Below are positions 1 through 34,577 of a DNA stretch of 64,000 nt, in pieces. Source of the stretch: Escherichia coli (GTDB taxonomy: Bacteria > Pseudomonadota > Gammaproteobacteria > Enterobacterales > Enterobacteriaceae). Each line of letters opens with the position of its first letter. Position 1 is the stretch's first letter. Below the pieces are notes generated by a model that made no database searches, had not been told where the DNA came from, and worked only from the letters and a program-made list of their open reading frames with translations. A program made the position numbers and the translations under genes. The stretch lies in NCBI RefSeq assembly GCF_003334815.1, contig NZ_QOWO01000008.1. One strand, 5' to 3'.

Positions 1-512
1 TAGGGTTCGACATCGGCACTGCCGGTTCTAAACATCGGGCGATTCTGGCTATCGATGATCTGAATACGTAGACCTTCCTGGACCAGATCGATTTTGAGAT
101 GGGGACGTAACGCCCGCAGTTTCGGATCGGACTCTATCAACTGGTCGAGATCACCCCGCAATTTCCGCAATCGACTTTGCTCCATGCGTTTTTTCAGCTC
201 TTCGATGTTCGGCTGCTTATTCACTTCCCCCTGGCTTTGGGTGTAATCATCACCACCGCCGGGAATTGGGCTTTCACTATTAGAAATGCGATCGCCGCCC
301 GTAACCGCAGTCGCCAGTGGAGTCCGGAAGTACTCCGCAATCTGAATCAGCTCTTTTGGGCTGGAGATGGAGATCAGCCACATCACCAGAAAAAAGGCCA
401 TCATCGCAGTCATAAAGTCGGCATAAGCAATCTTCCACGATCCATGTGCTGCCCCGTGGCTTTTGGCTTTGCGTCGTTTGACGACAATAATCGGATGCGC
501 TTGATTCTTCAT
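1..512 (-). CDS. motB: Flagellar stator protein MotB, N-terminal part only (3' end runs off the window)
   Basis: Minus-strand ATG at 512-510 overlaps the motA stop (ATGA junction) and translates [33 protein letters not shown]..., the MotB N-terminus; open to position 1. Confidence 0.9.
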
Positions 513-1396
513 GCTTCCTCGGTTGTCGTCTGTTGTTGCGGATTTTTCACCGCACGCACATGCTCTTCCAGTTCAATAAACGACGGACGTTCGCTGGAAT
601 AGAGCGTTTTGCGACCAAACTCAACGGCGATAGGCGGTGCGTAACCGTTCAGATTAGAAAGCAGAGTGACTTTGACGCACTGCATCATTTTGCTGGTTTC
701 GGCGCTTTTCTGACGTAAAACAGTCGCTAATGGGGAAATAAATCCGTAAGCCAATAAAATGCCGAGGAAAGTCCCCACCATCGCATGTGCGATAAGCGCA
801 CCCAGCTCGGCGGCAGGACGATCGGCTGAACCTAACGCGTGAACGACCCCCATTACAGCCGCAACAATACCAAACGCCGGAAGTGAGTCCCCGACCAGCG
901 CCAGACTGTTCGCCGGGACTTCTGCCTCGCTTTCGTGCGTCTCAATCTCTTCATCCATCAGAGCTTCGATTTCGAAGGTGTTCATGTGACCGCTGATAAT
1001 CAGGCGCAGATAATCGACGATAAAATCAAGCATGACGCTATCCGCGAGGATGCGTGGGTAGCTGGCGAAGATCTCGCTCTCACGGGGATTTTCAATATCA
1101 CGTTCCAGCGAAAACATCCCCATCTGCCGCGATTTCGCCATCAACCGATAAAGCAGAGCCAGCAGATCCATATACATTGCTTTGGTGTATTTGGAGCGAC
1201 GAAACAGCAACGGCAGCGCCTTCAGCGTGCCTTTAATCGCTTTGCCATTATTGCCGACGATAAACGACCCAATCCCTGCACCGGCAATAATCACCAGTTC
1301 AGCGGGTTGATAGAGTGCTCCAAGGCTTCCACCGGTCATCAAATAACCGCCGAAAACTGTACCGAGAACAACCAGGTAACCTAATAAGATAAGCAC
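509..1396 (-). CDS. motA: Flagellar stator protein MotA (proton channel)
   Basis: 295-aa ORF in track; sequence matches recalled MotA; 4-nt overlap with motB start. Confidence 0.96.
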
Positions 1397-1522: not shown

Positions 1523-2101
1523 TTAAACAGCCTGTACTCTCTGTTCATCCAGCAGTTGTGGGATAATATCGGCAGGATTCTGGGAAAGTTTACGTCTTTT
1601 TACTGCCCGGGATGGCGGTTGACATAAGCTGCAGGCAAAGCTGCCAACAGGCTGGTGAGCGTGGGTAATAAAATTGCCGCCGCAGCAGTTGCAGCTGGAA
1701 AGTTGCAGTAATCCACTTTCAACAAACCGCACCAATGTCCAGGCACGGGTTAATGCCAGCAGTGGTCCTTCTTCTGCTTGTGGGCACTGTTCAAGGTATA
1801 AACGGTAGGCTTTGATCACCGCATCGACGCCATTACACAAACCGGTTTTCAGTAAAAACTGCCATGCATTACAGAACATCGAAGCATGAACGTTTTGTTC
1901 CCAGGTCATAAACCAGTCGGTTGAGAATGGCAGCATGCCTTTCGGCGGTGGGCTTCCGCGCAGTTCTTTATAAAGTTTTATCAGGCGTCCGCGACTTAAC
2001 TGTGTTTCGCTTTCCAGCATCTGCAAACGAGCGCCCAGGGTGATCAATTCCATTGCCAGCTGAATATCCCGCGCTTCCTGAACAATGCTTTTTTCACTCA
2101 T
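1523..2101 (-). CDS. flhC: Flagellar master regulator subunit FlhC
   Basis: 192-aa ORF matching recalled FlhC ([27 protein letters not shown]...). Confidence 0.97.
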
Positions 2102-2103
2102 GA

Positions 2104-2454
2104 TCAGGCCCTTTTCTTGCGCAGCGCTTCTTCAGGCTGATTAACATCATTCAGCAAGCGTGTTGAGAGCATGATGCCGGTATGAATTTGCTGGAGATCG
2201 TCAATGCGGGAATCTTGCGTCAACTGAGTAATCGTCTGGTGGCTGTCAAAACGGAAGTGACAAACCAGTTGATTGGTTTCTGCCAGCTTAACCATTTGCG
2301 GAAGAGTCAGTGCCGCTAACGTTGTCGCCATTTCTTCATTTATGCCGAGACGAAACATAGCGGACGCTTTGTCCTGAACAATCAAACGCTGTGCAAGTAG
2401 TAAATATGACAAGTTGATGTCATAAATGTGTTTCAGCAACTCGGAGGTATGCAT
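2104..2454 (-). CDS. flhD: Flagellar master regulator subunit FlhD
   Basis: ORF track gives 119 aa from 2463 ([10 protein letters not shown]...); recalled K-12 FlhD begins [24 protein letters not shown], so start set at 2454; either start is possible. Confidence 0.93.
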
Positions 2455-2715
2455 TATTCCCACCCAGAATAACCAACTTTATTTTTATGCGGTTTCACCG
2501 CACCCCGTGATGTCGCCGGGAAGCCCCGGTAAAAAATAATTAGCATTAGAATAGTTGCGATAAGCTGCAATAAGCAGAACCACCTTTTTGGTTTAATATG
2601 TCCTTACAAATAGAAATGGGTCTTTACACTTATCTAAGATTTTTCCTAAATCGACGCAACTGTACTCGTCACTACACGCACATACAACGGAGGGGGGCTG
2701 CGATTTTCAATAATG

Positions 2716-2731
2716 TGTGATGCAGATCACA
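2716..2731. promoter_or_regulatory. CRP binding site of the flhDC promoter
   Basis: Perfect palindrome TGTGATGCAGATCACA (TGTGA-N6-TCACA) about 270 bp upstream of the flhD start, consistent with the class I CRP site of flhDC. Confidence 0.75.
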
Positions 2732-3233
2732 CAAAACACTCAATTACTTAACATAAATGTATAAGTCATACTTTTGTTTTGGGTGTATTTCAATCTGTTA
2801 AAAAGTTTTTCGCTACGCTAGCAAGCAAAAATGAAACAGGAATAATCGAAATGGGATGTTGCGCACAGTCAAAATAACTCACCGTAAATAATCATCTGCT
2901 ATAAATAATCACTTTCATGCAATACCAGATAAGCTATTTTTAAACAGACACTTACCGCACAACAAACTAATTAAATACAAAGAAAGGCAACAATCAACTT
3001 AATGTTAATGAAATGTTTTACATATATTAACCACTTGTTTAATGCGGAGAATCAGTACACTATTTTCTTATAATTACATTTGAAATTATATGATCACCGG
3101 GAGTGATTGATTAATTGTCTTTACTAATAATCAGACTAATATTTACCTGTTTGACCGAGTTGGGATTGCGTCGTTTCTCCATTAGGAGTAAAGCTTTAAT
3201 GTCACCTGAAGTTCACAGAATAAGGAACAGGTT

Positions 3234-3662
3234 ATGAGCTATAGCAATATTCTTGTCGCTGTTGCGGTTACACCGGAAAGTCAGCAACTGCTGGCAAAAG
3301 CGGTATCTATCGCCAGGCCAGTAAAGGGACACATCAGTTTAATTACTCTCGCTTCCGACCCGGAAATGTACAATCAATTAGCTGCGCCGATGCTTGAAGA
3401 TTTACGCAGCGTGATGCAGGAAGAAACGCAAAGCTTTCTTGATAAGTTAATTCAGGATGCGGGGTATCCCGTTGACAAGACGTTTATTGCCTACGGTGAG
3501 TTAAGCGAACATATTCTGGAAGTATGTCACAAGCATCATTTCGATTTGGTGATTTGCGGTAATCACAATCACAGTTTCTTTTCGCGAGCATCCTGCTCGG
3601 CGAAAAGAGTTATTGCCTCAAGTGAGGTCGATGTGCTGTTAGTTCCACTTACGGGAGATTAA
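3234..3662 (+). CDS. uspC: Universal stress protein C
   Basis: 142-aa ORF with AGGAACAGG Shine-Dalgarno; matches recalled UspC (YecG). Confidence 0.93.
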   Translation: MSYSNILVAVAVTPESQQLLAKAVSIARPVKGHISLITLASDPEMYNQLAAPMLEDLRSVMQEETQSFLDKLIQDAGYPVDKTFIAYGELSEHILEVCHKHHFDLVICGNHNHSFFSRASCSAKRVIASSEVDVLLVPLTGD

Positions 3663-3668
3663 CCGCTC

Positions 3669-7021
<3,353 letters not shown>

Positions 7022-7035
7022 CATACTCTCCTTAC

Positions 7036-8550
7036 TCAGGCAACAGCCTGGCTGACTTTAGGCATCGCAAGGCTCAGTGCCTGACGCTCATCTGCCTGCT
7101 CGTGTAACAATTCACCGGCGATTTCACCTTCCCGCATCACCACAATCCGGTCGGCAACGCCGAGGACTTCAGGTAAGTCGCTGGAGGCAAACAGCACCGC
7201 CACGCCCTGCGCCGCCAGCGCATAAATTACGTTATATATTTCGTGCTTAGCGCCAACATCAATGCCGCGCGTAGGTTCATCCAGCAAAATGACCTTCATC
7301 TCTTCCGATAACCAGCGGCCCAGAATGGCTTTTTGCTGATTTCCGCCTGAGAGATTCATGATCAGTTGCTCCGCGCCCGGCGTTTTGATGTTGAGCGAAC
7401 GAATGTGGTGATCGGCATTGTTTTCTTCCCAACCGTTGTTGATTACACAACCGCCGAGCACATGTTTACGTCTGGCACTGATGTTGATATTGTCGCGAAC
7501 GGAGTGCACGGGAATAATGCCTTCCGCTTTGCGATCTTCCGGGCAGAGCATCATGCCTGCGGCAATGGCGTGGCTCGGTTTACGAATATCGATCGGCTGT
7601 TGGTCGATATAAACCTGACCGGCGGTGATTTGCGTCCCGCCAAACATGCCTTTCATTAATTCGCTACGCCCCGCCCCTACCAGACCAAACAGCCCAACAA
7701 TTTCACCACTGCGAACCGCCAGACTTATTGGCGTACGCACGCCTGGTGCTTTCACAGCATCAAGACGTAGGCGCTCCTCGCCATAACTACGCGGTTGCCA
7801 GCCGTAGATATCGCCAATGTCGCGCCCGACCATCGCCTGCACCAGCGCGTCGTGGTCAACCTGCTGCATATCGGTAAAGGTTTTGACATAACGTCCATCT
7901 TTAAAGACAGTAATGGCATCGCTGAGGGCAAATATTTCTTCCATACGGTGAGAAACGTATAAGATTACCCGCCCCTCTTTTCGCAGTTCACGAATAACGC
8001 GGAAAAGATTGTCGATTTCACGGGCAGAGAGGGAGCTGGTTGGCTCATCAAAGGCGATAATTTTGGCGTTACGCGCCAGCGCTTTGGCGATTTCAACCAT
8101 CTGCCACTGACCAATGGAGAGATATTTCAGCGGCGTGTCCGGGTCAATATCCATACCAAGATGTTTAAGTTGTAAACCCGCCTCATAATTCAGCAATGAG
8201 CGATTCACAATGCCGCCTTTATGCGGCAGCTGGCCGAGATAGATGTTTTCCGCGACGGTCATTTCCGGCACGAGATGCAGTTCCTGGTAAATAATCGCCA
8301 CGCCCGCGTTAAGTGCTGCGGTCGTGTCGGAAAAGGACATTTCCTGCCCATTAATCACTACAGAACCCGTGGTTGGCGCATAGTTGCCGCTGAGGATTTT
8401 TAAGAGAGTTGATTTTCCTGCGCCATTTTCACCCATCAACGCATGAACCTGACCGGCATAGCAGTCAAAACTAATATCCGTCAGCGCCTTAACGCCGGGA
8501 AACGTTTTACCGATGCCGCGAAATGAGAGATACGGGGTAGACTGTTGCAT
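7036..8550 (-). CDS. araG: Arabinose ABC transporter ATP-binding protein (duplicated ABC domains)
   Basis: Track ORF 519 aa; recalled AraG (504 aa) begins [17 protein letters not shown] at ATG 8550; two Walker A motifs ([18 protein letters not shown]). Confidence 0.95.
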
Positions 8551-11440: not shown

Positions 11441-11702
11441 CGCGGCACTCCGACCATTTGTTATACAGGTGTTATTGTCTTTGCGCTTATAATATGACAA
11501 CCATCACAAAAATCAATCTTTATGTGATACAAATCACATAAATACCCCTTTAATGTTATAAAAATGATAATCAAAAAACAGCCCCCCTATTTCTGACACC
11601 TACAGATGGCAAGAAATAGCGCCTGCCAGGCGTCTTTTCCGGCCATTGTCGCAGCACTGTAACGCGTAAAATAGTGCTTTCTCTTACTCTTCTGGCTGGA
11701 CC

Positions 11703-15295: not shown

Positions 15296-15382
15296 TGGTA
15301 CCCGGAGCGGGACTTGAACCCGCACAGCGCGAACGCCGAGGGATTTTAAATCCCTTGTGTCTACCGATTCCACCATCCGGGC
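15296..15382 (-). tRNA. leuZ: tRNA-Leu (anticodon UAA)
   Basis: Reverse complement reads GCCCGGATGGTGGAATCGGTAGACACAAGGGATTTAAAATCCC...GGGTACCA, 87 nt with encoded CCA. Confidence 0.95.
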
Positions 15383-15394
15383 TCGGGAAGAAAG

Positions 15395-15468
15395 TGGAGG
15401 CGCGTTCCGGAGTCGAACCGGACTAGACGGATTTGCAATCCGCTACATAACCGCTTTGTTAACGCGCC
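15395..15468 (-). tRNA. cysT: tRNA-Cys (anticodon GCA)
   Basis: Reverse complement reads GGCGCGTTAACAAAGCGGTTATGTAGCGGATTGCAAATCCG...GCGCCTCCA, 74 nt. Confidence 0.95.
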
Positions 15469-15522
15469 AAATTCTTCAGGCCTTTCAGCCAGACATCCGC
15501 TTGACGCCGATGTCTTTTAAAC

Positions 15523-15598
<76 letters not shown>

Positions 15599-21974: not shown

Positions 21975-23866
<1,892 letters not shown>

Positions 23867-23953
23867 ATTCACCCCGAATGTTGTTATGTCTGTTTGCAGT
23901 GTAGAGCCATTGTTTGTAAACACAAAAACAACTCCGCTACATCTTATTCTTAT

Positions 23954-24505
23954 TTAATATATATCAGAAGAAGGCAGGCTGGAGGATTTCTGCACAAGTC
24001 CGGTACAGGTTTGGCGCTGATAGTGTTGATACTTCCGTAACGCGATGCGGTAATTGTTGGTGCTGGTGGTGGGCAGCCACGGGGCGAGGATTTCATCAAG
24101 GAAACCGTCCTGCAGCTGTTCGAGGGAAATATTTTGCTCGTGTAGATGATTCCCCAAACGGCGCAAACGAACGACATATTCACGCACCGTACCTGGGCTC
24201 ATTTCAGTTTGCTCAAAAAGAAATTGCTTAAAGCCGATAATATCGAAAAAATCACTCTGCGTTTTGCAGTGTAAATCACCGCAAAATCGGCACAATGCCG
24301 CCCATGATTGTTGTTCCACTTGCCAGCCATTTTCATCAAGCAGCGTGTCCAGGCGGGAAATCTCGATTTTATTCACTATTTTGCCGTCGCGAACTAAGGT
24401 AATGCGATCGAGTAATTTACGGCAATGCGCACAATGGGTCTGGCTGTGTTTAAAGTCTTTAAGATAGCGGCTTAATGGCCGTCTTTTCAGGTGCTGCACC
24501 ATCAT
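23954..24505 (-). CDS. fliZ: Flagellar/curli regulatory protein FliZ
   Basis: Track ORF 195 aa; recalled FliZ (183 aa) begins MMVQHLKRRPLSRYLKDF at ATG 24505. Confidence 0.93.
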   Translation of the reverse strand: MMVQHLKRRPLSRYLKDFKHSQTHCAHCRKLLDRITLVRDGKIVNKIEISRLDTLLDENGWQVEQQSWAALCRFCGDLHCKTQSDFFDIIGFKQFLFEQTEMSPGTVREYVVRLRRLGNHLHEQNISLEQLQDGFLDEILAPWLPTTSTNNYRIALRKYQHYQRQTCTGLVQKSSSLPSSDIY

Positions 24506-24550
24506 TAAGAACTCCTGGTAGTCAAAGTTAAAGTGCGGCATTTACTGACG

Positions 24551-25270
24551 TTATAACTTACCCAGTTTAGTGCGTAACCGTTTAATGGCCTGGCTGTGTA
24601 ACTGACTGACCCGCGATTCCCCGACCTCCAGCACCGCGCCAATCTCTTTGAGATTCAGCTCTTCCTGGTAATAGAGGGTTAATACCAGTTTTTCGCGCTC
24701 CGGCAGCGTTTCGATAGCTTCCATCACCCGCTGGCGCAGATTACTGTCCAGCAGTTGTTGTAGCGGGTTTTCTCGCTGATGATCATCAGTAACCAGTTCG
24801 ATGCTATCGCCGTGCTCTTCGCGCCACTCATCGTAGGAGAAGAGCTGGCTGTTATTGGTGTCGAGCAACATTTGGCGATAATCGGCAATATCGATCCCTA
24901 AACGTTCCGCTACCTCAGTTTCCGTGGCGTTGCGGCCAAGTTCCTGCTCCAGTTGCCCTATTGCCTGTGCCACTTCACGCGCGTTGCGTCGCACGCTGCG
25001 CGGCACCCAGTCACGGCTGCGAAGTTCATCCAGCATAGCGCCACGGATACGCTGCACTGCGTAAGTTGTAAATGCCGTTCCTTGTAGGGCGTCATAGCGT
25101 TCGACGGCATTAAGTAACCCAATGCCGCCCGCCTGTAGCAGATCGTCAAGTTCCACGCTCGCGGGCAGTCGAACCTGCAGGCGCAATGCTTCGTGACGCA
25201 CCAGCGGGACATAACGCTGCCACAGCGAGTGTTTATCCATTACACCTTCAGCGGTATAGAGTGAATTCAC
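24551..25270 (-). CDS. fliA: Flagellar sigma factor sigma-28 (FliA)
   Basis: 239-aa ORF matching recalled FliA. Confidence 0.97.
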   Translation of the reverse strand: MNSLYTAEGVMDKHSLWQRYVPLVRHEALRLQVRLPASVELDDLLQAGGIGLLNAVERYDALQGTAFTTYAVQRIRGAMLDELRSRDWVPRSVRRNAREVAQAIGQLEQELGRNATETEVAERLGIDIADYRQMLLDTNNSQLFSYDEWREEHGDSIELVTDDHQRENPLQQLLDSNLRQRVMEAIETLPEREKLVLTLYYQEELNLKEIGAVLEVGESRVSQLHSQAIKRLRTKLGKL

Positions 25271-25391
25271 GATAAACAGCCCTGCGTTATATGAGTTATC
25301 GGCATGATTATCCGTTTCTGCAGGGTTTTTAATCGGACGATTAGTGGGTGAAATGAGGGGTTATTTGGGGGTTACCGGTAAATTGCGGACA

Positions 25392-25415
25392 GAAAAAACC
25401 CCGCCGGTGGCGGGG
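25392..25415 (-). terminator. Intrinsic terminator at the end of the fliC 3' UTR
   Basis: Minus-strand hairpin CCCCGCC-ACCG-GCGGGG followed by U6. Confidence 0.75.
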
Positions 25416-25447
25416 AAGCACGTTGCTGACAAATTACCATTCATGTT

Positions 25448-25546
<99 letters not shown>

Positions 25547-25589
25547 AATTTGGCGTTGCCGTCAGTCTCAGTTAATCAGGTTAGGACGA

Positions 25590-27302
25590 TTAACCCTGCA
25601 GCAGAGACAGAACCTGCTGCGGTACCTGGTTAGCTTTTGCCAGCACGGAGTTACCTGCCTGCTGAATAATCTGCGCTTTCGACATGTTGGACACTTCGGT
25701 CGCATAGTCGGCGTCCTGAATACGGGACTGCGCTTCGGACAGGTTGGTAGTGGTGTTGTTCAGGTTGGTGACTGCGGAATCCAGACGGTTCTGCACGGCA
25801 CCCAGGGAAGAACGGAATTTGTCTACGGATGCGATAGCATCGTCCAGCGCTTTCAGCGGATCCGTGGTCGCTTCAGATTTACCTGTAGCTTCAGTGGTCA
25901 GAGAGCCGTCAGCCGCTTTATACAGAGCCGCGCCGTCATCATCCAGAATATTGCCGTTAGCAAATTCGTGATAAGTTTCTGTGACAGTCTTGTTGGCCGC
26001 AGTCGTCAGTTCACCCTCAGCACCAATATTTACGGTCGCTCCACCTGTAGTAGCAGTTACTGCACCATCAGCGGCAACGTCATAAGACTGTGCGCCGTTA
26101 GCTACGGTATAAGCCTGACCGGTTAACGCAGTGTTCATATCTTCGGCGGATACCGTCGCGCCCTTAATATCCACATTGTTGCTAACCTGGGTGAAGTCAA
26201 CGGTCATGCCGCTGCCGAAGGTAATCTTCGCATCAACTGCATCATGACCATTCGCACCGTTGAAAATACCGTCCAACGTTGCCGCGGCTGGGCCGCCGGC
26301 CTGGTTTTTCGTCAGGTTACCGTCAGCACCAATGTATAAAGCATCGCCATTAGTATCCGTCAGGGTACCATCGCTGGCAATTTTAACTTCCTGAGCGCTA
26401 CCACCGATGGAGATCTGAGCCGTGTTATCGCCGTTTGCTGCATAGGCTTTCAGAACATCAGCAACTTTAGTTGAGCCCGCAGTACCATCACCATTAGTAA
26501 GTGCGGTTGCGTCAAATGAATAAGACTTGCTGGTTGCGTTGTAGGTATATGCAGTAGAAGCCGCTACGCCTAACCCATTGTTTGTGCCAGCATAACCGCT
26601 AATAGTGCTGCCGCCACTAACGCTAGCCAGCACATCGGTAGCTGTTGCTGCATTAAAGGTAGTAACAGTAGATTTAGTCCAGGTGCTATTGCCACTGACA
26701 ACTGCACTTTGGGAGAAGCCCGCAGCGGTCAGATCTGCTTCAGTGGCTTTTGCATTATCAACAGCGCCTTTACCGTTGACGTTGAAGCTGGTCAGCTTCA
26801 GTGTAGAAGAGTCGATTTTTTTCAGGTCAATCGTGATGGTTTCACCATCATTTGCGCCCACCTGAATTTTCATTGAACCGTCTTTGGACAACACATTCAC
26901 GCCATTGAACTGGGTCTGACCAGATACGCGGTCAATTTCATCAAGACGAGATTTGATTTCGTCCTGGATGGAGTCCAGGTCAGAATCGGAGTTAGTACCG
27001 GTAGTGGCCTGAACCGTCAGTTCACGGATACGCTGTAAGTTGTTGTTGATTTCGGACAGCGCGCCTTCGGTGGTCTGCGCAACGGAAATACCGTCGTTGG
27101 CGTTACGTGCAGCCTGAGTCAGGCCTTTAATGTTAGAAGTAAAACGGTTAGCAATCGCCTGACCCGCGGCGTCATCCTTCGCGCTGTTAATACGCAAGCC
27201 AGAAGACAGACGCTCGATAGAACTCGACAGCGCAGACTGGTTCTTGTTGATATTATTTTGAGTGATCAGCGAGAGGCTGTTGGTATTAATGACTTGTGCC
27301 AT
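25590..27302 (-). CDS. fliC: Flagellin (H-antigen); 570 aa with conserved D0/D1 termini and a central variable domain unlike the K-12 allele
   Basis: N-terminus MAQVINTNSLSLITQNNINKNQSALSSSIERLSSGLRINSAKDDAAGQAIANRF and C-terminus ...SKAQIIQQAGNSVLAKANQVPQQVLSLLQG are canonical; the central ~300 aa is Thr/Ala/Gly/Asp-rich. Confidence 0.96.
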   Translation of the reverse strand: MAQVINTNSLSLITQNNINKNQSALSSSIERLSSGLRINSAKDDAAGQAIANRFTSNIKGLTQAARNANDGISVAQTTEGALSEINNNLQRIRELTVQATTGTNSDSDLDSIQDEIKSRLDEIDRVSGQTQFNGVNVLSKDGSMKIQVGANDGETITIDLKKIDSSTLKLTSFNVNGKGAVDNAKATEADLTAAGFSQSAVVSGNSTWTKSTVTTFNAATATDVLASVSGGSTISGYAGTNNGLGVAASTAYTYNATSKSYSFDATALTNGDGTAGSTKVADVLKAYAANGDNTAQISIGGSAQEVKIASDGTLTDTNGDALYIGADGNLTKNQAGGPAAATLDGIFNGANGHDAVDAKITFGSGMTVDFTQVSNNVDIKGATVSAEDMNTALTGQAYTVANGAQSYDVAADGAVTATTGGATVNIGAEGELTTAANKTVTETYHEFANGNILDDDGAALYKAADGSLTTEATGKSEATTDPLKALDDAIASVDKFRSSLGAVQNRLDSAVTNLNNTTTNLSEAQSRIQDADYATEVSNMSKAQIIQQAGNSVLAKANQVPQQVLSLLQG

Positions 27303-27368
27303 GATTCGTTATCCTATATTGCAAGTCGTTGATTACGTATTGGGTTTCCACCCGTCGGCTCAATCGCC

Positions 27369-27395
27369 GTCAACCCTGTTATCGTCTGTCGTAAA
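27369..27395 (-). promoter_or_regulatory. Sigma-28 (class 3) promoter of fliC
   Basis: Minus strand reads TAAAGGTT-N11-GACGATAA (consensus TAAAGTTT-N11-GCCGATAA) upstream of the fliC start. Confidence 0.75.
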
Positions 27396-27497
27396 ACAAC
27401 CTTTAGAATTTTTTTCACAAACAGCCATTTTTTGTTAGTCGCCGAAATACTCTTTTCTCTGCCCCTTATTCCCGCTATTAAAAAAAACAATTAAACG

Positions 27498-27524
27498 TAA
27501 ACTTTGCGCAATTCAGGCCGATAA
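27498..27524 (+). promoter_or_regulatory. Sigma-28 (class 3) promoter of fliDST
   Basis: TAAACTTT-N11-GCCGATAA on the + strand, about 45 bp upstream of the fliD ATG. Confidence 0.75.
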
Positions 27525-27567
27525 CCCCGGTATTCGTTTTACGTGTCGAAAGATAAAAGGAAATCGC

Positions 27568-28974
27568 ATGGCAAGTATTTCATCGCTGGGAGTCGGGTCA
27601 GGCCTGGATTTAAGTTCAATCCTTGATAGCCTCACCGCCGCGCAAAAAGCGACGCTAACCCCTATTTCAAATCAGCAATCGTCGTTTACCGCTAAACTTA
27701 GCGCCTACGGTACGCTGAAAAGCGCGTTGACGACTTTCCAGACCGCCAATACTGCATTGTCTAAAGCCGATCTTTTTTCCGCCACCAGCACTACCAGCAG
27801 CACCACCGCGTTCAGTGCCACCACCGCGGGTAACGCCATCGCCGGGAAATACACCATCAGCGTCACCCATCTGGCGCAGGCGCAAACCCTGACCACGCGC
27901 ACCACCAGAGATGATACGAAAACGGCGATCGCCACCAGCGACAGTAAACTCACCATTCAACAAGGCGGCGACAAAGATCCGATTACCATTGATATCAGCG
28001 CGGCTAACTCGTCGTTAAGCGGGATCCGTGATGCCATCAACAACGCAAAAGCGGGCGTAAGTGCGAGCATCATTAACGTGGGTAACGGTGAATATCGTCT
28101 GTCAGTCACATCAAATGACACCGGCCTTGACAATGCGATGACACTCTCGGTCAGCGGTGATGATGCGCTACAAAGTTTTATGGGCTATGACGCCAGTGCC
28201 AGCAGCAACGGCATGGAAGTCTCGGTCGCCGCCCAGAATGCGCAGCTGACGGTCAACAACGTCGCCATTGAGAACAGCAGCAACACCATCAGCGACGCGC
28301 TGGAAAACATCACCCTGAACCTGAACGATGTCACCACGGGCAACCAGACGCTGACCATCACTCAGGACACCTCCAAAGCGCAAACGGCGATTAAAGACTG
28401 GGTGAATGCCTATAACTCGCTAATAGATACCTTCAGCAGCCTGACCAAATACACCGCCGTAGATGCGGGAGCTGATAGCCAAAGCTCTAGCAATGGCGCA
28501 CTGCTCGGCGACTCCACGCTGCGGACGATTCAGACGCAGTTGAAGTCGATGCTGAGTAATACCGTCAGTTCTTCCAGCTATAAAACGTTGGCGCAGATTG
28601 GTATCACGACCGATCCCAGCGATGGCAAACTGGAACTGGATGCCGACAAACTCACCGCTGCACTGAAAAAAGATGCCAGCGGCGTAGGTGCATTGATTGT
28701 TGGCGATGGTAAAAAAACCGGCATCACAACCACCATCGGCAGCAACCTGACCAGTTGGCTTTCGACAACGGGCATTATTAAAGCCGCTACCGATGGCGTT
28801 AGTAAGACTCTGAATAAATTAACTAAAGACTACAACGCCGCCAGCGATCGCATTGATGCGCAGGTCGCGCGCTACAAAGAACAATTTACCCAACTGGACG
28901 TTTTAATGACCTCGTTAAACAGCACCAGCAGCTACTTAACGCAGCAGTTCGAAAACAACAGTAATTCCAAGTAA
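27568..28974 (+). CDS. fliD: Flagellar filament capping protein FliD
   Basis: 468-aa ORF matching recalled FliD. Confidence 0.96.
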   Translation: MASISSLGVGSGLDLSSILDSLTAAQKATLTPISNQQSSFTAKLSAYGTLKSALTTFQTANTALSKADLFSATSTTSSTTAFSATTAGNAIAGKYTISVTHLAQAQTLTTRTTRDDTKTAIATSDSKLTIQQGGDKDPITIDISAANSSLSGIRDAINNAKAGVSASIINVGNGEYRLSVTSNDTGLDNAMTLSVSGDDALQSFMGYDASASSNGMEVSVAAQNAQLTVNNVAIENSSNTISDALENITLNLNDVTTGNQTLTITQDTSKAQTAIKDWVNAYNSLIDTFSSLTKYTAVDAGADSQSSSNGALLGDSTLRTIQTQLKSMLSNTVSSSSYKTLAQIGITTDPSDGKLELDADKLTAALKKDASGVGALIVGDGKKTGITTTIGSNLTSWLSTTGIIKAATDGVSKTLNKLTKDYNAASDRIDAQVARYKEQFTQLDVLMTSLNSTSSYLTQQFENNSNSK

Positions 28975-28998
28975 TCAATATTCATCGGGAGACAGGTC

Positions 28999-29409
28999 AT
29001 GTACGCGGCAAAAGGCACCCAGGCCTATGCACAAATTGGCGTCGAAAGCGCCGTAATGAGCGCCAGCCAGCAGCAGCTGGTCACCATGCTATTTGATGGA
29101 GTGCTGAGCGCACTGGTTAGAGCGCGCCTGTTTATGCAGGACAACAATCAGCAAGGCAAAGGCGTCTCTTTGTCAAAAGCGATCAACATCATTGAGAACG
29201 GACTGCGGGTGAGTCTTGATGAAGATAGCAAAGACGAATTAACCCAAAACTTGATTGCTCTTTATAGCTATATGGTCAGGCGTTTGCTGCAAGCCAATTT
29301 ACGCAACGATGTCTCCGCAGTCGAAGAAGTGGAAGCATTAATGCGCAATATTGCCGATGCCTGGAAAGAGTCGTTACTCTCCCCTTCTTTGATTCAGGAC
29401 CCAGTCTGA
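28999..29409 (+). CDS. fliS: Flagellin-specific export chaperone FliS
   Basis: 136-aa ORF matching recalled FliS. Confidence 0.95.
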
Positions 29410-29774
29410 TGAACCATGCACCGCATTTGTATTTCGCCTGGCAACAACTCGTCGAAAAAAGCCAGCTCATGTTACGCCTGGCAACGGAAGAACAATGGGA
29501 CGAACTCATCGCCAGCGAAATGGCGTATGTGAATGCGGTGCAGGAGATAGCACACCTGACTGAAGAGGTTGCCCCGTCCACCACGATGCAGGAGCAGCTC
29601 CGCCCGATGCTGCGCCTGATTCTCGACAACGAAAGCAAGGTAAAGCAGTTATTACAGATTCGTATGGATGAACTGGCGAAACTGGTCGGTCAGTCATCGG
29701 TGCAAAAATCGGTGTTAAGTGCCTATGGCGATCAGGGCGGCTTTGTGCTGGCTCCGCAAGATAACTTCTCGTGA
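29409..29774 (+). CDS. fliT: FliD chaperone / anti-FlhDC factor FliT
   Basis: 121-aa ORF matching recalled FliT; overlaps the fliS stop. Confidence 0.95.
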
Positions 29775-29851
29775 ATCTTAACGAGCTAATGGTTCGCGAA
29801 TAATCCGATTACGGCTACGCTTCTAATGTTCCCCTTGAATGGAGTCGAAGA

Positions 29852-31339
29852 ATGCGTAATCCCACGCTGTTACAATGTTTTCACTGGTATTACCCGGAAG
29901 GCGGTAAGCTCTGGCCTGAACTGGCCGAGCGCGCCGACGGTTTTAATGATATTGGTATCAATATGGTCTGGTTGCCGCCCGCCTATAAAGGCGCATCGGG
30001 CGGGTATTCGGTCGGCTACGACTCCTATGATTTATTTGATTTAGGCGAGTTTGATCAGAAAGGCAGCATCCCTACTAAATATGGCGATAAAGTACAATTG
30101 CTGGCCGCCATTGACGCCCTGAAACGTAATGACATTGCGGTGCTGTTGGACGTGGTAGTCAACCACAAAATGGGCGCGGATGAAAAAGAAGCTATTCGCG
30201 TGCAGCGTGTAAATGCTGACGACCGTACGCAAATTGATGAAGAAATCATTGAGTGCGAAGGCTGGACGCGTTACACCTTCCCCGCCCGTGCCGGGCAATA
30301 CTCACAGTTTATCTGGGATTTCAAATGTTTTAGCGGTATCGACCATATCGAAAACCCTGATGAAGATGGCATATTTAAAATTGTTAACGACTACACCGGC
30401 GAAGGCTGGAACGATCAGGTTGATGATGAATTAGGTAATTTCGATTATCTGATGGGCGAGAATATCGATTTTCGCAATCATGCCGTGACGGAAGAGATTA
30501 AATACTGGGCGCGCTGGGTGATGGAACAAACGCAATGCGACGGTTTTCGTCTTGATGCGGTCAAACATATACCGGCATGGTTTTATAAAGAGTGGATCGA
30601 ACACGTACAAGAAGTTGCACCAAAGCCGCTGTTTATTGTGGCGGAGTACTGGTCGCATGAAGTCGATAAACTGCAAACGTATATTGATCAGGTGGAAGGC
30701 AAAACCATGCTGTTCGATGCGCCGCTGCAGATGAAATTCCATGAAGCATCGCGCATGGGGCGCGACTACGACATGACGCAGATTTTCACGGGTACATTAG
30801 TGGAAGCCGATCCTTTCCACGCCGTGACGCTCGTTGCCAATCACGACACCCAACCGTTGCAAGCCCTCGAAGCGCCGGTCGAACCGTGGTTTAAACCGCT
30901 GGCGTATGCCTTAATTTTGTTGCGGGAAAATGGCGTTCCTTCGGTATTCTATCCGGACCTCTACGGTGCGCATTACGAAGATGTCGGCGGTGACGGGCAA
31001 ACCTATCCGATAGATATGCCAATAATCGAACAGCTTGATGAGTTAATTCTCGCCCGTCAGCGTTTCGCCCACGGTGTACAGACATTATTTTTCGACCATC
31101 CGAACTGCATTGCCTTTAGCCGCAGTGGCACTGACGAATATCCCGGCTGCGTGGTGGTCATGTCGAACGGGGATGATGGCGAAAAAACCATTAATCTGGG
31201 AGAGAATTACGGCAATAAAACCTGGCGTGATTTTCTGGGGAACCGGCAAGAGAGCGTAGTAACCGACGAAAACGGTGAAGCGACCTTCTTTTGCAACGGC
31301 GGCAGCGTCAGCGTGTGGGTTATCGAAGAGGTGATTTAA
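29852..31339 (+). CDS. amyA: Cytoplasmic alpha-amylase (GH13)
   Basis: 495-aa ORF without signal peptide; matches recalled AmyA. Confidence 0.95.
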
Positions 31340-31345
31340 ATTCAT

Positions 31346-31364
31346 CCCCGGCGGCAAGCCGGGG
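31346..31364. terminator. Terminator-like GC hairpin between convergent amyA and yedD
   Basis: CCCCGGC-GGCAA-GCCGGGG stem-loop between the two stop codons; flanking U-tract is weak. Confidence 0.45.
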
Positions 31365-31372
31365 AGATTTCA

Positions 31373-31786
31373 TTACGGCAGTGGCGTCGGTAACGGCGCT
31401 TTATCCAGCGCGGCGGCACACTCTGCCGTCGGGCGATCCACACGCTCCATCGTCATACCATCGTACTCAATGGTGTTACCGTCACGCTCAACCTCGTATA
31501 GCTCACGTTTTACGGTAACGTTAGTGAGATCATCAGACATCAATGTCAACTTACCCGGCACGGCAATCACCCGCTGCCACTGACGGCAATCAAGAGTATC
31601 GCCCTCTTTAGTGACAATCAGGCTGCCTATCGCTTCCGGGCTGACCAGCGCACGTTGCGGCCCTTTGGTCTGCCAGTAGCCCGCCAGCCAGTCCGGCGCG
31701 GGGGTTTTCACGACATTGTTATAGTTTTCGACTTCGGCACAGCCCGCCAGCAACATGAGCGCGCCTGCAATTGCGAGTTTTTTCAT
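31373..31786 (-). CDS. yedD: Lipoprotein YedD
   Basis: 137/138-aa ORF with lipobox LAGC; matches recalled YedD. Confidence 0.9.
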   Translation of the reverse strand: MKKLAIAGALMLLAGCAEVENYNNVVKTPAPDWLAGYWQTKGPQRALVSPEAIGSLIVTKEGDTLDCRQWQRVIAVPGKLTLMSDDLTNVTVKRELYEVERDGNTIEYDGMTMERVDRPTAECAAALDKAPLPTPLP

Positions 31787-31972
31787 CATTCGTCCTGCAT
31801 GAGAAGAAAAGAAGATTGTGGCATTAAAGCCCTGATGTCGCCAGCCTTTACAGGTTCAGAGAGAAATTTGATCTAACTATTATTTTTGTGAATTATTACC
31901 CCGAAAATAAATTTGCATGATGTATGATTCGCGACTCTTGTTTCAAACCTTCTGAGTTCAGAGGCTACATTC

Positions 31973-33178
31973 ATGTCATGGCAGCAATTCAAACACGCCT
32001 GGTTGATTAAATTCTGGGCACCCATCCCTGCGGTCATCGCGGCGGGTATTCTCTCCACTTACTATTTTGGCATTACTGGCACCTTTTGGGCTGTCACGGG
32101 TGAATTTACCCGTTGGGGCGGCCAGCTCCTGCAGCTGTTTGGCGTCCATGCTGAAGAGTGGGGTTATTTTAAAATTATCCATCTGGAAGGATCGCCATTA
32201 ACCCGCATCGACGGGATGATGATCCTCGGCATGTTTGGCGGCTGCTTTGCCGCAGCGCTGTGGGCCAACAATGTCAAACTGCGCATGCCACGCAGCCGTA
32301 TCCGCATTATGCAGGCCATTATTGGCGGTATTATCGCTGGTTTTGGCGCGCGTCTGGCAATGGGCTGTAACCTGGCGGCGTTCTTTACCGGTATTCCTCA
32401 GTTCTCGCTGCATGCCTGGTTCTTTGCCATCGCCACTGCCATTGGTTCATGGTTTGGCGCACGCTTTACCCTGCTGCCCATCTTCCGTATTCCCGTGAAA
32501 ATGCAGAAAGTTTCTGCCGCCTCACCGCTGACGCAAAAACCGGATCAGGCGCGGCGTCGTTTTCGTCTCGGGATGCTGGTCTTTTTCGGCATGCTGGGCT
32601 GGGCGCTGCTCACGGCGATGAACCAACCCAAACTGGGGCTGGCAATGCTGTTTGGCGTCGGCTTTGGTTTACTGATTGAACGTGCGCAAATCTGCTTTAC
32701 TTCGGCGTTCCGCGATATGTGGATCACCGGACGTACCCACATGGCGAAAGCAATCATTATTGGTATGGCGGTGAGTGCCATCGGGATCTTCAGTTACGTA
32801 CAGTTAGGTGTTGAACCCAAAATCATGTGGGCGGGACCAAACGCGGTAATTGGTGGTTTACTGTTTGGTTTTGGCATCGTGCTGGCAGGCGGCTGCGAAA
32901 CCGGTTGGATGTACCGCGCGGTAGAAGGTCAGGTGCACTACTGGTGGGTCGGTCTGGGCAATGTGATCGGCTCAACCATTCTGGCGTATTACTGGGATGA
33001 TTTCGCTCCGGCGCTGGCCACCGACTGGGACAAAATCAACCTGCTGAAAACCTTTGGCCCGATGGGTGGCCTGCTGGTGACATATTTGCTGTTGTTTACT
33101 GCGCTGATGTTGATTATCGGCTGGGAAAAACGCTTCTTCCGCCGTGCGGCACCGCAGACTGCTAAGGAGATCGCATGA
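31973..33178 (+). CDS. yedE: YedE family inner-membrane transporter (YeeE/YedE; sulfur/selenium-compound transport)
   Basis: 401-aa polytopic ORF matching recalled YedE. Confidence 0.92.
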   Translation: MSWQQFKHAWLIKFWAPIPAVIAAGILSTYYFGITGTFWAVTGEFTRWGGQLLQLFGVHAEEWGYFKIIHLEGSPLTRIDGMMILGMFGGCFAAALWANNVKLRMPRSRIRIMQAIIGGIIAGFGARLAMGCNLAAFFTGIPQFSLHAWFFAIATAIGSWFGARFTLLPIFRIPVKMQKVSAASPLTQKPDQARRRFRLGMLVFFGMLGWALLTAMNQPKLGLAMLFGVGFGLLIERAQICFTSAFRDMWITGRTHMAKAIIIGMAVSAIGIFSYVQLGVEPKIMWAGPNAVIGGLLFGFGIVLAGGCETGWMYRAVEGQVHYWWVGLGNVIGSTILAYYWDDFAPALATDWDKINLLKTFGPMGGLLVTYLLLFTALMLIIGWEKRFFRRAAPQTAKEIA

Positions 33179-33408
33179 AAAATATCATTCCTGATTACCG
33201 TCTTGATATGGTGGGTGAACCCTGCCCTTATCCGGCAGTCGCAACCCTTGAGGCGATGCCGCAGTTAAAAAAAGGTGAGATCCTGGAAGTGGTGAGCGAC
33301 TGTCCGCAGTCGATCAATAATATTCCACTGGATGCTCGTAATCACGGCTATACGGTGCTGGATATTCAGCAAGACGGGCCGACCATTCGTTATTTAATTC
33401 AGAAGTAA
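33175..33408 (+). CDS. yedF: TusA-like sulfurtransferase-fold protein YedF
   Basis: 77-aa ORF with TusA-type CPxP motif (EPCPYP); 4-nt overlap with yedE. Confidence 0.92.
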   Translation: MKNIIPDYRLDMVGEPCPYPAVATLEAMPQLKKGEILEVVSDCPQSINNIPLDARNHGYTVLDIQQDGPTIRYLIQK

Positions 33409-33516
33409 TCCCTCATTCCCGCTGTGGCCAACAGCGGGAATATCGTTGCCTCTGTACCACATAGATTTTACCCGCCCCCTCTCCTATTCTTTTCAGTGTG
33501 CTCTCAGGAGGTTGCT

Positions 33517-34185
33517 ATGTGTGGACGCTTTGCCCAATCCCAAACGCGTGAAGATTACCTTGCGCTTCTCGCGGAAGATATTGAACGCGATATTCCCTAT
33601 GATCCCGAACCCATTGGCAGATACAACGTCGCGCCGGGAACCAAAGTTCTTCTGCTCAGTGAACGTGATGAACACCTTCATCTGGATCCGGTTTTCTGGG
33701 GATATGCTCCCGGATGGTGGGATAAACCGCCGCTGATTAACGCCCGCGTAGAAACTGCGGCCACCAGTCGTATGTTTAAACCGCTCTGGCAACATGGTCG
33801 GGCAATCTGTTTTGCCGATGGCTGGTTTGAGTGGAAAAAAGAAGGCGACAAAAAACAGCCTTATTTTATCTATCGTGCTGACGGACAACCTGTTTTTATG
33901 GCCGCGATAGGTAGCACACCGTTTGAGCGCGGTGACGAAGCCGAAGGATTTTTAATTGTCACTGCAGCAGCAGACCAGGGTCTGGTAGATATTCATGACC
34001 GCCGCCCGCTGGTACTGTCGCCAGAAGCTGCGCGGGAATGGATGCGGCAAGAGATTGGCGGTAAAGAAGCATCAGAAATTGCTACCAACGGCTGTGTGCC
34101 AGCAAACCAGTTCACCTGGCACCCGGTATCGCGCGCGGTAGGTAATGTCAAAAACCAGGGCGCGGAGTTAATTCAACCTGTTTGA
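33517..34185 (+). CDS. yedK: SRAP (SOS response-associated peptidase) abasic-site processing protein YedK
   Basis: Track ORF starts at 33424; true start ATG 33517 follows AGGAGG and gives MCGRFAQSQ... (catalytic Cys2); 222 aa matching recalled YedK. Confidence 0.93.
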   Translation: MCGRFAQSQTREDYLALLAEDIERDIPYDPEPIGRYNVAPGTKVLLLSERDEHLHLDPVFWGYAPGWWDKPPLINARVETAATSRMFKPLWQHGRAICFADGWFEWKKEGDKKQPYFIYRADGQPVFMAAIGSTPFERGDEAEGFLIVTAAADQGLVDIHDRRPLVLSPEAAREWMRQEIGGKEASEIATNGCVPANQFTWHPVSRAVGNVKNQGAELIQPV

Positions 34186-34577
34186 TAAGCCAGGAGACTA
34201 TTGATCAATAATACTGCGTCATAAGAAATCTCTATTAGACAAAGTAGACGCTCCTTCCACATGCGCCACAAGAAACCTCTATTCCAGTGACACAATTACG
34301 CCTGATTATTTCCCTAGCCCGGAATATGAATAAAAACATCAACAAAGATTAAATTATTCAAACGTTACTGTTGCGTCTGCGGTCGTAACAACATCCGACG
34401 TGGTGATGTGTATCAAATGAGGCCTCTGATGATCAGAGGGTTTATCGCGTATACGGATCGTGGATGGCAGAAAACTTTCAGAATCAGGTTTCCATTTTAA
34501 ACCAGAAATTGAGTGAGTTTGCCCCATCCATGCCCCACGCGGTGAGATCGGATGTAATTAACAACAGGTTACAAAAC

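Follow-up and report, generated by a model that had tools for sequence, protein, structure and literature searches.

The DNA analyzed here is a 64-kb stretch of the Escherichia coli chromosome (hereafter the window) whose left end carries the flagellar genes motA, flhC and flhD, followed by uspC in the opposite orientation and then by otsA and otsB (Table 1). The open reading frames of the window and the RefSeq annotation of homologous loci indicated the same genes. The flhD-uspC intergenic region comprises positions 2455-3233, i.e. 779 bp when counted from the RefSeq ATG codon of flhD, whereas the coordinates of the original prediction gave 770 bp, because a GTG codon located upstream in the same frame (the old flhD start) extends the open reading frame to position 2463 and thus moves the boundary to 2464. 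The GC content of the interval was 34.9-35.0% versus 49.6% for the whole window, and it dropped to 27-33% across positions 2700-3200; the intergenic region was thus found to have both the size and the AT richness that had been predicted for it. With uspC divergent to flhDC and with flhC and motA downstream, the locus has the arrangement expected of a native flhDC promoter.

Table 1. Features of the flhDC locus and of other parts of the window (strand: -, leftward; +, rightward;., not stranded)
Feature	Position	Strand	Remarks
motA	509-1396	-	left end of the window
flhC	1523-2101	-	192 aa, sequence identical to K-12 FlhC
flhD	2104-2454	-	116 aa from ATG at 2454 (start per RefSeq annotation of homologous loci)
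flhDC 5' leader	2455-2652	-	198 nt, identical to K-12
Inferred flhDC transcription start (+1)	2652	-	from leader length and published IS positions
Putative -10 hexamer, TACAGT (sense strand)	2659-2664	-	4/6 consensus positions
Putative -35 hexamer, TTGTAT	2682-2687	-	17-bp spacer to -10; best hexamers given the +1
AT-rich putative upstream silencing region	2700-3200	.	31% GC; common to the divergent uspC promoter; K-12 differences here only at 2716 and 3117
cAMP-CRP site, perfect core TGTGA-N6-TCACA	2716-2731	.	centre at -71.5 from the inferred +1
SNP	2716		T in window, C in K-12 (+ strand)
TTAA, IS5 hot-spot target	2748-2751	.	-96 to -99; unoccupied; occupied by IS5 in W3110 (PMC5100188)
CATAAATG, IS1 target duplicated in MG1655	2752-2759	.	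-100 to -107; single copy in window
CTAG, published IS5 target	2818-2821	.	-166 to -169; unoccupied (PMC5100188, PMC5493358)
CTAA (TTAG sense), IS5 target	2967-2970	.	-315 to -318, 516 bp upstream of the flhD ATG; unoccupied (PMC1174868, PMC11237407)
SNP	3117		G in window, A in K-12
uspC	3234-3662	+	142 aa; ORFs and RefSeq annotation of homologous loci
otsA, then otsB	otsA 3669-5102	-	beyond uspC
leuZ-cysT-glyW tRNA cluster	15296-15598		expected place
DsrA	47105-47191		expected place
RseX	55527-55616		expected place

The central claim of the original prediction was that this region contains neither a transposase ORF nor the terminal repeats of an insertion sequence (IS). We found no transposase ORF or fragment and no ORF longer than 40 aa in positions 2455-3233, and none of the six frames of the interval showed a stop-free run longer than 49 aa, with 14-21 stops per frame. 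When IS1 and IS5 terminal repeats were searched for in the whole 64-kb window, allowing up to 2-3 mismatches, none was found, and BLAST of the full-length IS1 (taken from MG1655) and IS5 (taken from W3110) elements against the window gave a best E value of 0.14. A repeat search of the interval yielded weak repeats at chance level only, and Rfam provided no matches within it, either at the gathering threshold or at E <= 1. Moreover, the interval is single-copy within the window and was found at a median of one place per genome, which argues that it is not mobile DNA, since mobile DNA would be multi-copy. The most decisive evidence against an IS comes from the comparison with other genomes: dozens of non-K-12 isolates, whose sources include livestock, humans and the environment, matched positions 2300-3400 (1101 bp) at 100% identity in a single alignment without gaps, and the interval is collinear and gap-free with thousands of E. 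coli genomes. ORF, repeat, BLAST and alignment evidence were hence in agreement with the claim, and neither IS terminal inverted repeats nor a transposase fragment, both of which had been named as evidence that would count against it, turned up on alignment.

The flhD upstream regions of MG1655 and W3110, which the original prediction proposed as references, aligned with the window both to the left and to the right of their IS1 and IS5 elements, and once these elements had been removed the alignment was free of gaps. The 779 bp contained 0 indels and two SNPs (99.8% identity). In MG1655, a 768-bp IS1 is flanked by an 8-bp duplication of CATAAATG, and in W3110 the IS5 element is flanked by a duplication of TTAA; both targets are single-copy in the window and lack a flanking duplication, and the sequence ACTTAACATAAATGTATAAG, which runs across the K-12 IS target sites, is intact and single. 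Because only two SNPs separate the window from K-12, the sites mapped in K-12 are all conserved by identity. It had also been stated that several K-12 laboratory lineages carry IS1 or IS5 at this place and that such insertions raise motility, and this is well documented by the IS1 of MG1655, the IS5 of W3110 and published work (PMC4726332, PMC5100188, PMC1174868, PMC9478672). According to this literature, MG1655 contains IS1, RP437 and W3110 contain IS5, and BW25113 and EPEC contain none (PMC4726332), and in K-12, flhDC is expressed more strongly and motility is higher when IS1 or IS5 is located at -96 to -476 (PMC5100188, PMC1174868, PMC9478672, PMC5289928). In the window, the stretch from about -96 to -476 relative to the flhDC start contained no IS1, IS5 or other IS.

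An insertion might have gone unnoticed if the interval concealed a miniature element, the scar of an excised element or the degenerate remains of an IS. Small remnants can indeed occur at this locus, as judged from strain HS-02, in which a 173-bp insert whose end resembles IS1 lies exactly at the IS1 site of MG1655; nevertheless, the interval showed no indel when compared with the IS-excised K-12 sequences or with thousands of other genomes, it is single-copy, as are CATAAATG and TTAA within it, and it contains no IS ends. The gap-free alignment, the single-copy targets and the lack of IS ends essentially refute such a hidden element, which we regard as extremely improbable.

The 99.8% identity of the interval to K-12 could also suggest that the window originates from a K-12 stock without an IS at this locus, for instance one resembling BW25113 or the MG1655 stock CGSC 6300. 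However, the surrounding sequence differs from K-12 at several places. Besides the SNP in the CRP site, FlhD shows one conservative difference (I84 in the window, V84 in K-12; window 2203-2205) and so does UspC (Q62 in the window, H62 in K-12; window 3417-3419). The fliC gene (25590-27302) encodes a 570-aa flagellin versus 498 aa for K-12 H48, and the yedK-fliE spacing is 392 bp (34186-34577) versus 2210 bp in W3110, a segment of about 1.8 kb with yedL and a yedN (DUF5503) pseudogene being missing between the two genes. Furthermore, the 12-kb fliC region was 100% identical to that of chicken, calf, seawater and human isolates (FDN-24, FDN-9, MB06232 and 52F4) and 99.6% identical to that of many pig isolates. 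The CRP-site SNP, the FlhD and UspC residues, the FliC length and the lack of the yedL-yedN segment thus refute a K-12 origin, for which the chance that is left is negligible, and because the strain is not K-12, a comparison with K-12 stocks says little about it. The flagellar ORFs of the window (flhDC, motA, fliA, fliC, fliD, fliS, fliT and fliE-R) are full-length, and the tRNA and small RNA genes listed in Table 1 lie where they are expected. A pair of REP elements was observed at 25448-25531, between fliA and fliC, where it overlaps an Rfam ES036 match (25484-25525), and it accounts for the about 24 places per genome obtained on searching positions 22000-34000.

To place the IS-free state within the species, positions 2600-3100 were compared with complete E. 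coli genomes. The segment was uninterrupted in 5239 of the 5420 genomes matching it (96.7%), a genome being counted as uninterrupted when one place covered at least 80% of the query, whose length had been set so that even IS1 would split the match; 163 extra places corresponded to genomes in which an insertion of at least 750 bp had divided the match. K-12 derivatives, e.g. strain 3A, O16:H48 CV601gfp and MG1655, account for many of the interrupted records. Since the IS-free state is the norm of the species (about 97%), its observation in the window is not distinctive: the state is real but ordinary, and everything about the region is already known.

Some interrupted loci, whose junctions were read by eye in NT1N31, HS-02 and 30859_5#12, deserve a separate mention. 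The top-ranked 100% matches in two pieces came from NT1N31, NT1N34 and NCTC9008, and they were rejected as cases of promoter activation, as their IS1 lies inside the flhD coding sequence, near codons 11-14, with flanks otherwise 100% identical to the window. In the NT1N31 locus the element occupies positions 623-1390, and the accompanying 9-bp duplication, GTTGATGTC, corresponds to window 2414-2422; these insertions are likely motility knock-outs in natural isolates. In isolate 30859_5#12, the intergenic region is broken near window position 3043 (about -391) by an IS1-bounded segment (about 4745-8430 of its locus), in which two IS1 copies bound a DUF3800 pseudogene and an abortive-infection family gene. 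The insert of HS-02 (953-1125 of its locus) is strikingly G-poor and immediately precedes CATAAATG. Over roughly its final 50 nt it resembles an IS1 end, and it may represent what is left of an IS1, a miniature element or an artefact of assembly.

The anatomy of the promoter was then read from the position of the transcription start. Taking the flhDC leader to be 198 nt long, transcription would start at position 2652, and with this +1 four independent published IS5 positions, taken like the other IS target positions from papers quoting the primary work, fall on the expected tetranucleotides (TTAA, CTAG and CTAA). The putative -10 and -35 hexamers that fit this start best share, taken together, 8 of their 12 bases with the consensus, and the core promoter is invariant across seven strains of several phylogroups, including B2 and O157:H7. 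A consensus promoter and terminator scan of positions 2400-3300 called nothing; this silence is expected of an activator-dependent promoter that matches only 8 of 12 consensus positions, and it says nothing for or against the promoter. The leader contains, at +5 to +18 (window 2635-2648), the sequence TAGGAAAAATCTTA, which would be the RcsAB box, and the flhDC leader would also carry target sites for CsrA and for small RNAs. With regard to the most distant of the IS5 targets in Table 1, the published position of TTAG is about -311 to -319 (PMC5100188, PMC1174868).

The original prediction placed a CRP palindrome at 2716-2731, and the sequence TGTGATGCAGATCACA was found exactly there, as a slightly better match than the K-12 reference site. 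Counted from the inferred +1, its centre shows one of the canonical class I CRP spacings (PMC11894529), and perfect TGTGA-N6-TCACA cores occur three times in the 64-kb window versus 0.03 expected by chance. The two further perfect cores lie at 11523-11538 and 55338-55353, one of them about 85-100 bp upstream of the position of azuC (by synteny with W3110) and the other preceding the gene for the RseX sRNA by about 175 bp. The difference between the window and K-12 affects the last base of the flhDC palindrome, at -64 in the half-site proximal to the promoter, which on the flhD sense strand is A in the window (TGTGATCTGCATCACA) versus G in K-12 (TGTGATCTGCATCACG). The base of the window is also present in LF82 (B2), O157:H7, TUM14664 and HS-02, and the G of K-12 was found, besides MG1655, in one natural isolate from Mali (203740). 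Searched as a 76-bp segment, the window allele was matched exactly by 2848 of 5379 genomes; for the K-12 allele, searched as a 66-bp segment, the figure was 399 of 5358. By these counts, the CRP allele of the window is that of the majority of the species and the K-12 reference carries a minority allele.

The presence of a SNP inside the CRP core raised a question about whether the strain, although IS-free, behaves as the poorly expressed IS-free K-12 does. If the A at -64 that completes the palindrome led to better cAMP-CRP binding, the strain would show good flhDC expression and be motile without any IS, and a tightly regulated promoter with low motility would not follow from the IS-free state. 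The wide distribution of the allele, which includes B2 strains and O157:H7, is consistent with this alternative, and single-base changes in the cAMP-CRP region, reportedly described by Fahrner and Berg in 2015, are said to be able to stimulate flhDC in K-12. On the other hand, the changed base is the outermost and least critical of the TGTGA motif, a literature search found no stated or measured effect of the -64 base, and among natural isolates the correlation between motility and PflhD activity is poor (PMC5289928). We consider this alternative unlikely. Slightly more doubtful still is the related idea that K-12 is the oddity, i.e. that a lineage-restricted change of TCACA to TCACG weakened the CRP activation of flhDC and partly explains why IS elements, which restore motility, are so readily fixed in K-12 stocks; if this were true, strains with a perfect CRP site would be adequately motile without an IS.

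Taken as a whole, the data favor the view that the window belongs to a non-K-12 E. coli and that its flhD-uspC intergenic region, including the promoter as read above, is native and uninterrupted; to this view we assign a probability of about 0.95. The claim that the strain has the native flhDC promoter stands, given that the region is free of IS1, IS5 or any other insertion and differs from K-12 by 2 SNPs and 0 indels. From what can be read in the DNA, nothing contradicts this native-promoter explanation, in which the start site and the hexamers have been assigned by us. According to this explanation, flhDC would be read leftward from a weak sigma-70 promoter (-35 TTGTAT, 17-bp spacer, -10 TACAGT, +1 near 2652) that would depend on cAMP-CRP bound at the perfect palindrome, centred at -71.5 in a class I geometry, and the transcript would start with the 198-nt leader bearing the sites for post-transcriptional control. 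The approximately 580 bp of AT-rich upstream DNA would be bound by repressors, both nucleoid-associated and specific ones, that hold expression low, and the IS1 or IS5 elements that landed at about -96 to -476 in laboratory K-12 stocks would have relieved this silencing and raised motility. For the CRP dependence, the repression and the effect of an IS we rely on the literature, in which the AT-rich upstream region is reported to bind RcsAB, OmpR, Fur, IHF, LrhA, MatA, YjjQ and H-NS, with CRP as the activator, and is also described as a segmented, duplex-destabilized region and a target of IS5 insertion; K-12 is the sole source of this regulator literature on flhDC (PMC5493358). Because the known landing sites are all intact and empty in the window, the promoter would be in its ancestral, repressible state, and tight regulation with low motility is what an extrapolation from IS-free K-12 stocks would suggest.

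From a practical point of view, flhDC of this strain would be under native control, a result of little wider importance. The landing sites at 2748-2759, 2818-2821 and 2967-2970 would be open to motility-activating insertions in soft-agar or resting culture, and events of this kind are known to give rise to secondary mutations and to be traded off against acid survival and growth (PMC11237407). A PCR spanning 2455-3233 is a valid screen for IS insertions. The sole point of wider interest is that the CRP site of the K-12 reference is a minority allele.

Three known states of this region can be compared with the window. The IS-free K-12 region, as found in BW25113 and in poorly motile MG1655 stocks, has the same length, the same order of elements, the CRP centre at -71.5, the same -35 and -10 hexamers, the 198-nt leader, the IS target tetranucleotides and uspC; it differs in having TCACG at the CRP half-site and A at 3117, where the window has the complete palindrome and G. 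In the IS-activated K-12 stocks (the sequenced MG1655 stock with IS1; W3110, RP437 and MC1000 with IS5), the flanks and the targets at 2748-2759 are identical to those of the window, which in contrast has neither an IS nor a target duplication and keeps the AT-rich upstream DNA contiguous with the promoter. Finally, the flhDC promoter of natural isolates (e.g. O157:H7, LF82 and B strains) shares with the window an identical core promoter and perfect CRP palindrome, although B2 strains diverge from it by up to about 5% further upstream.
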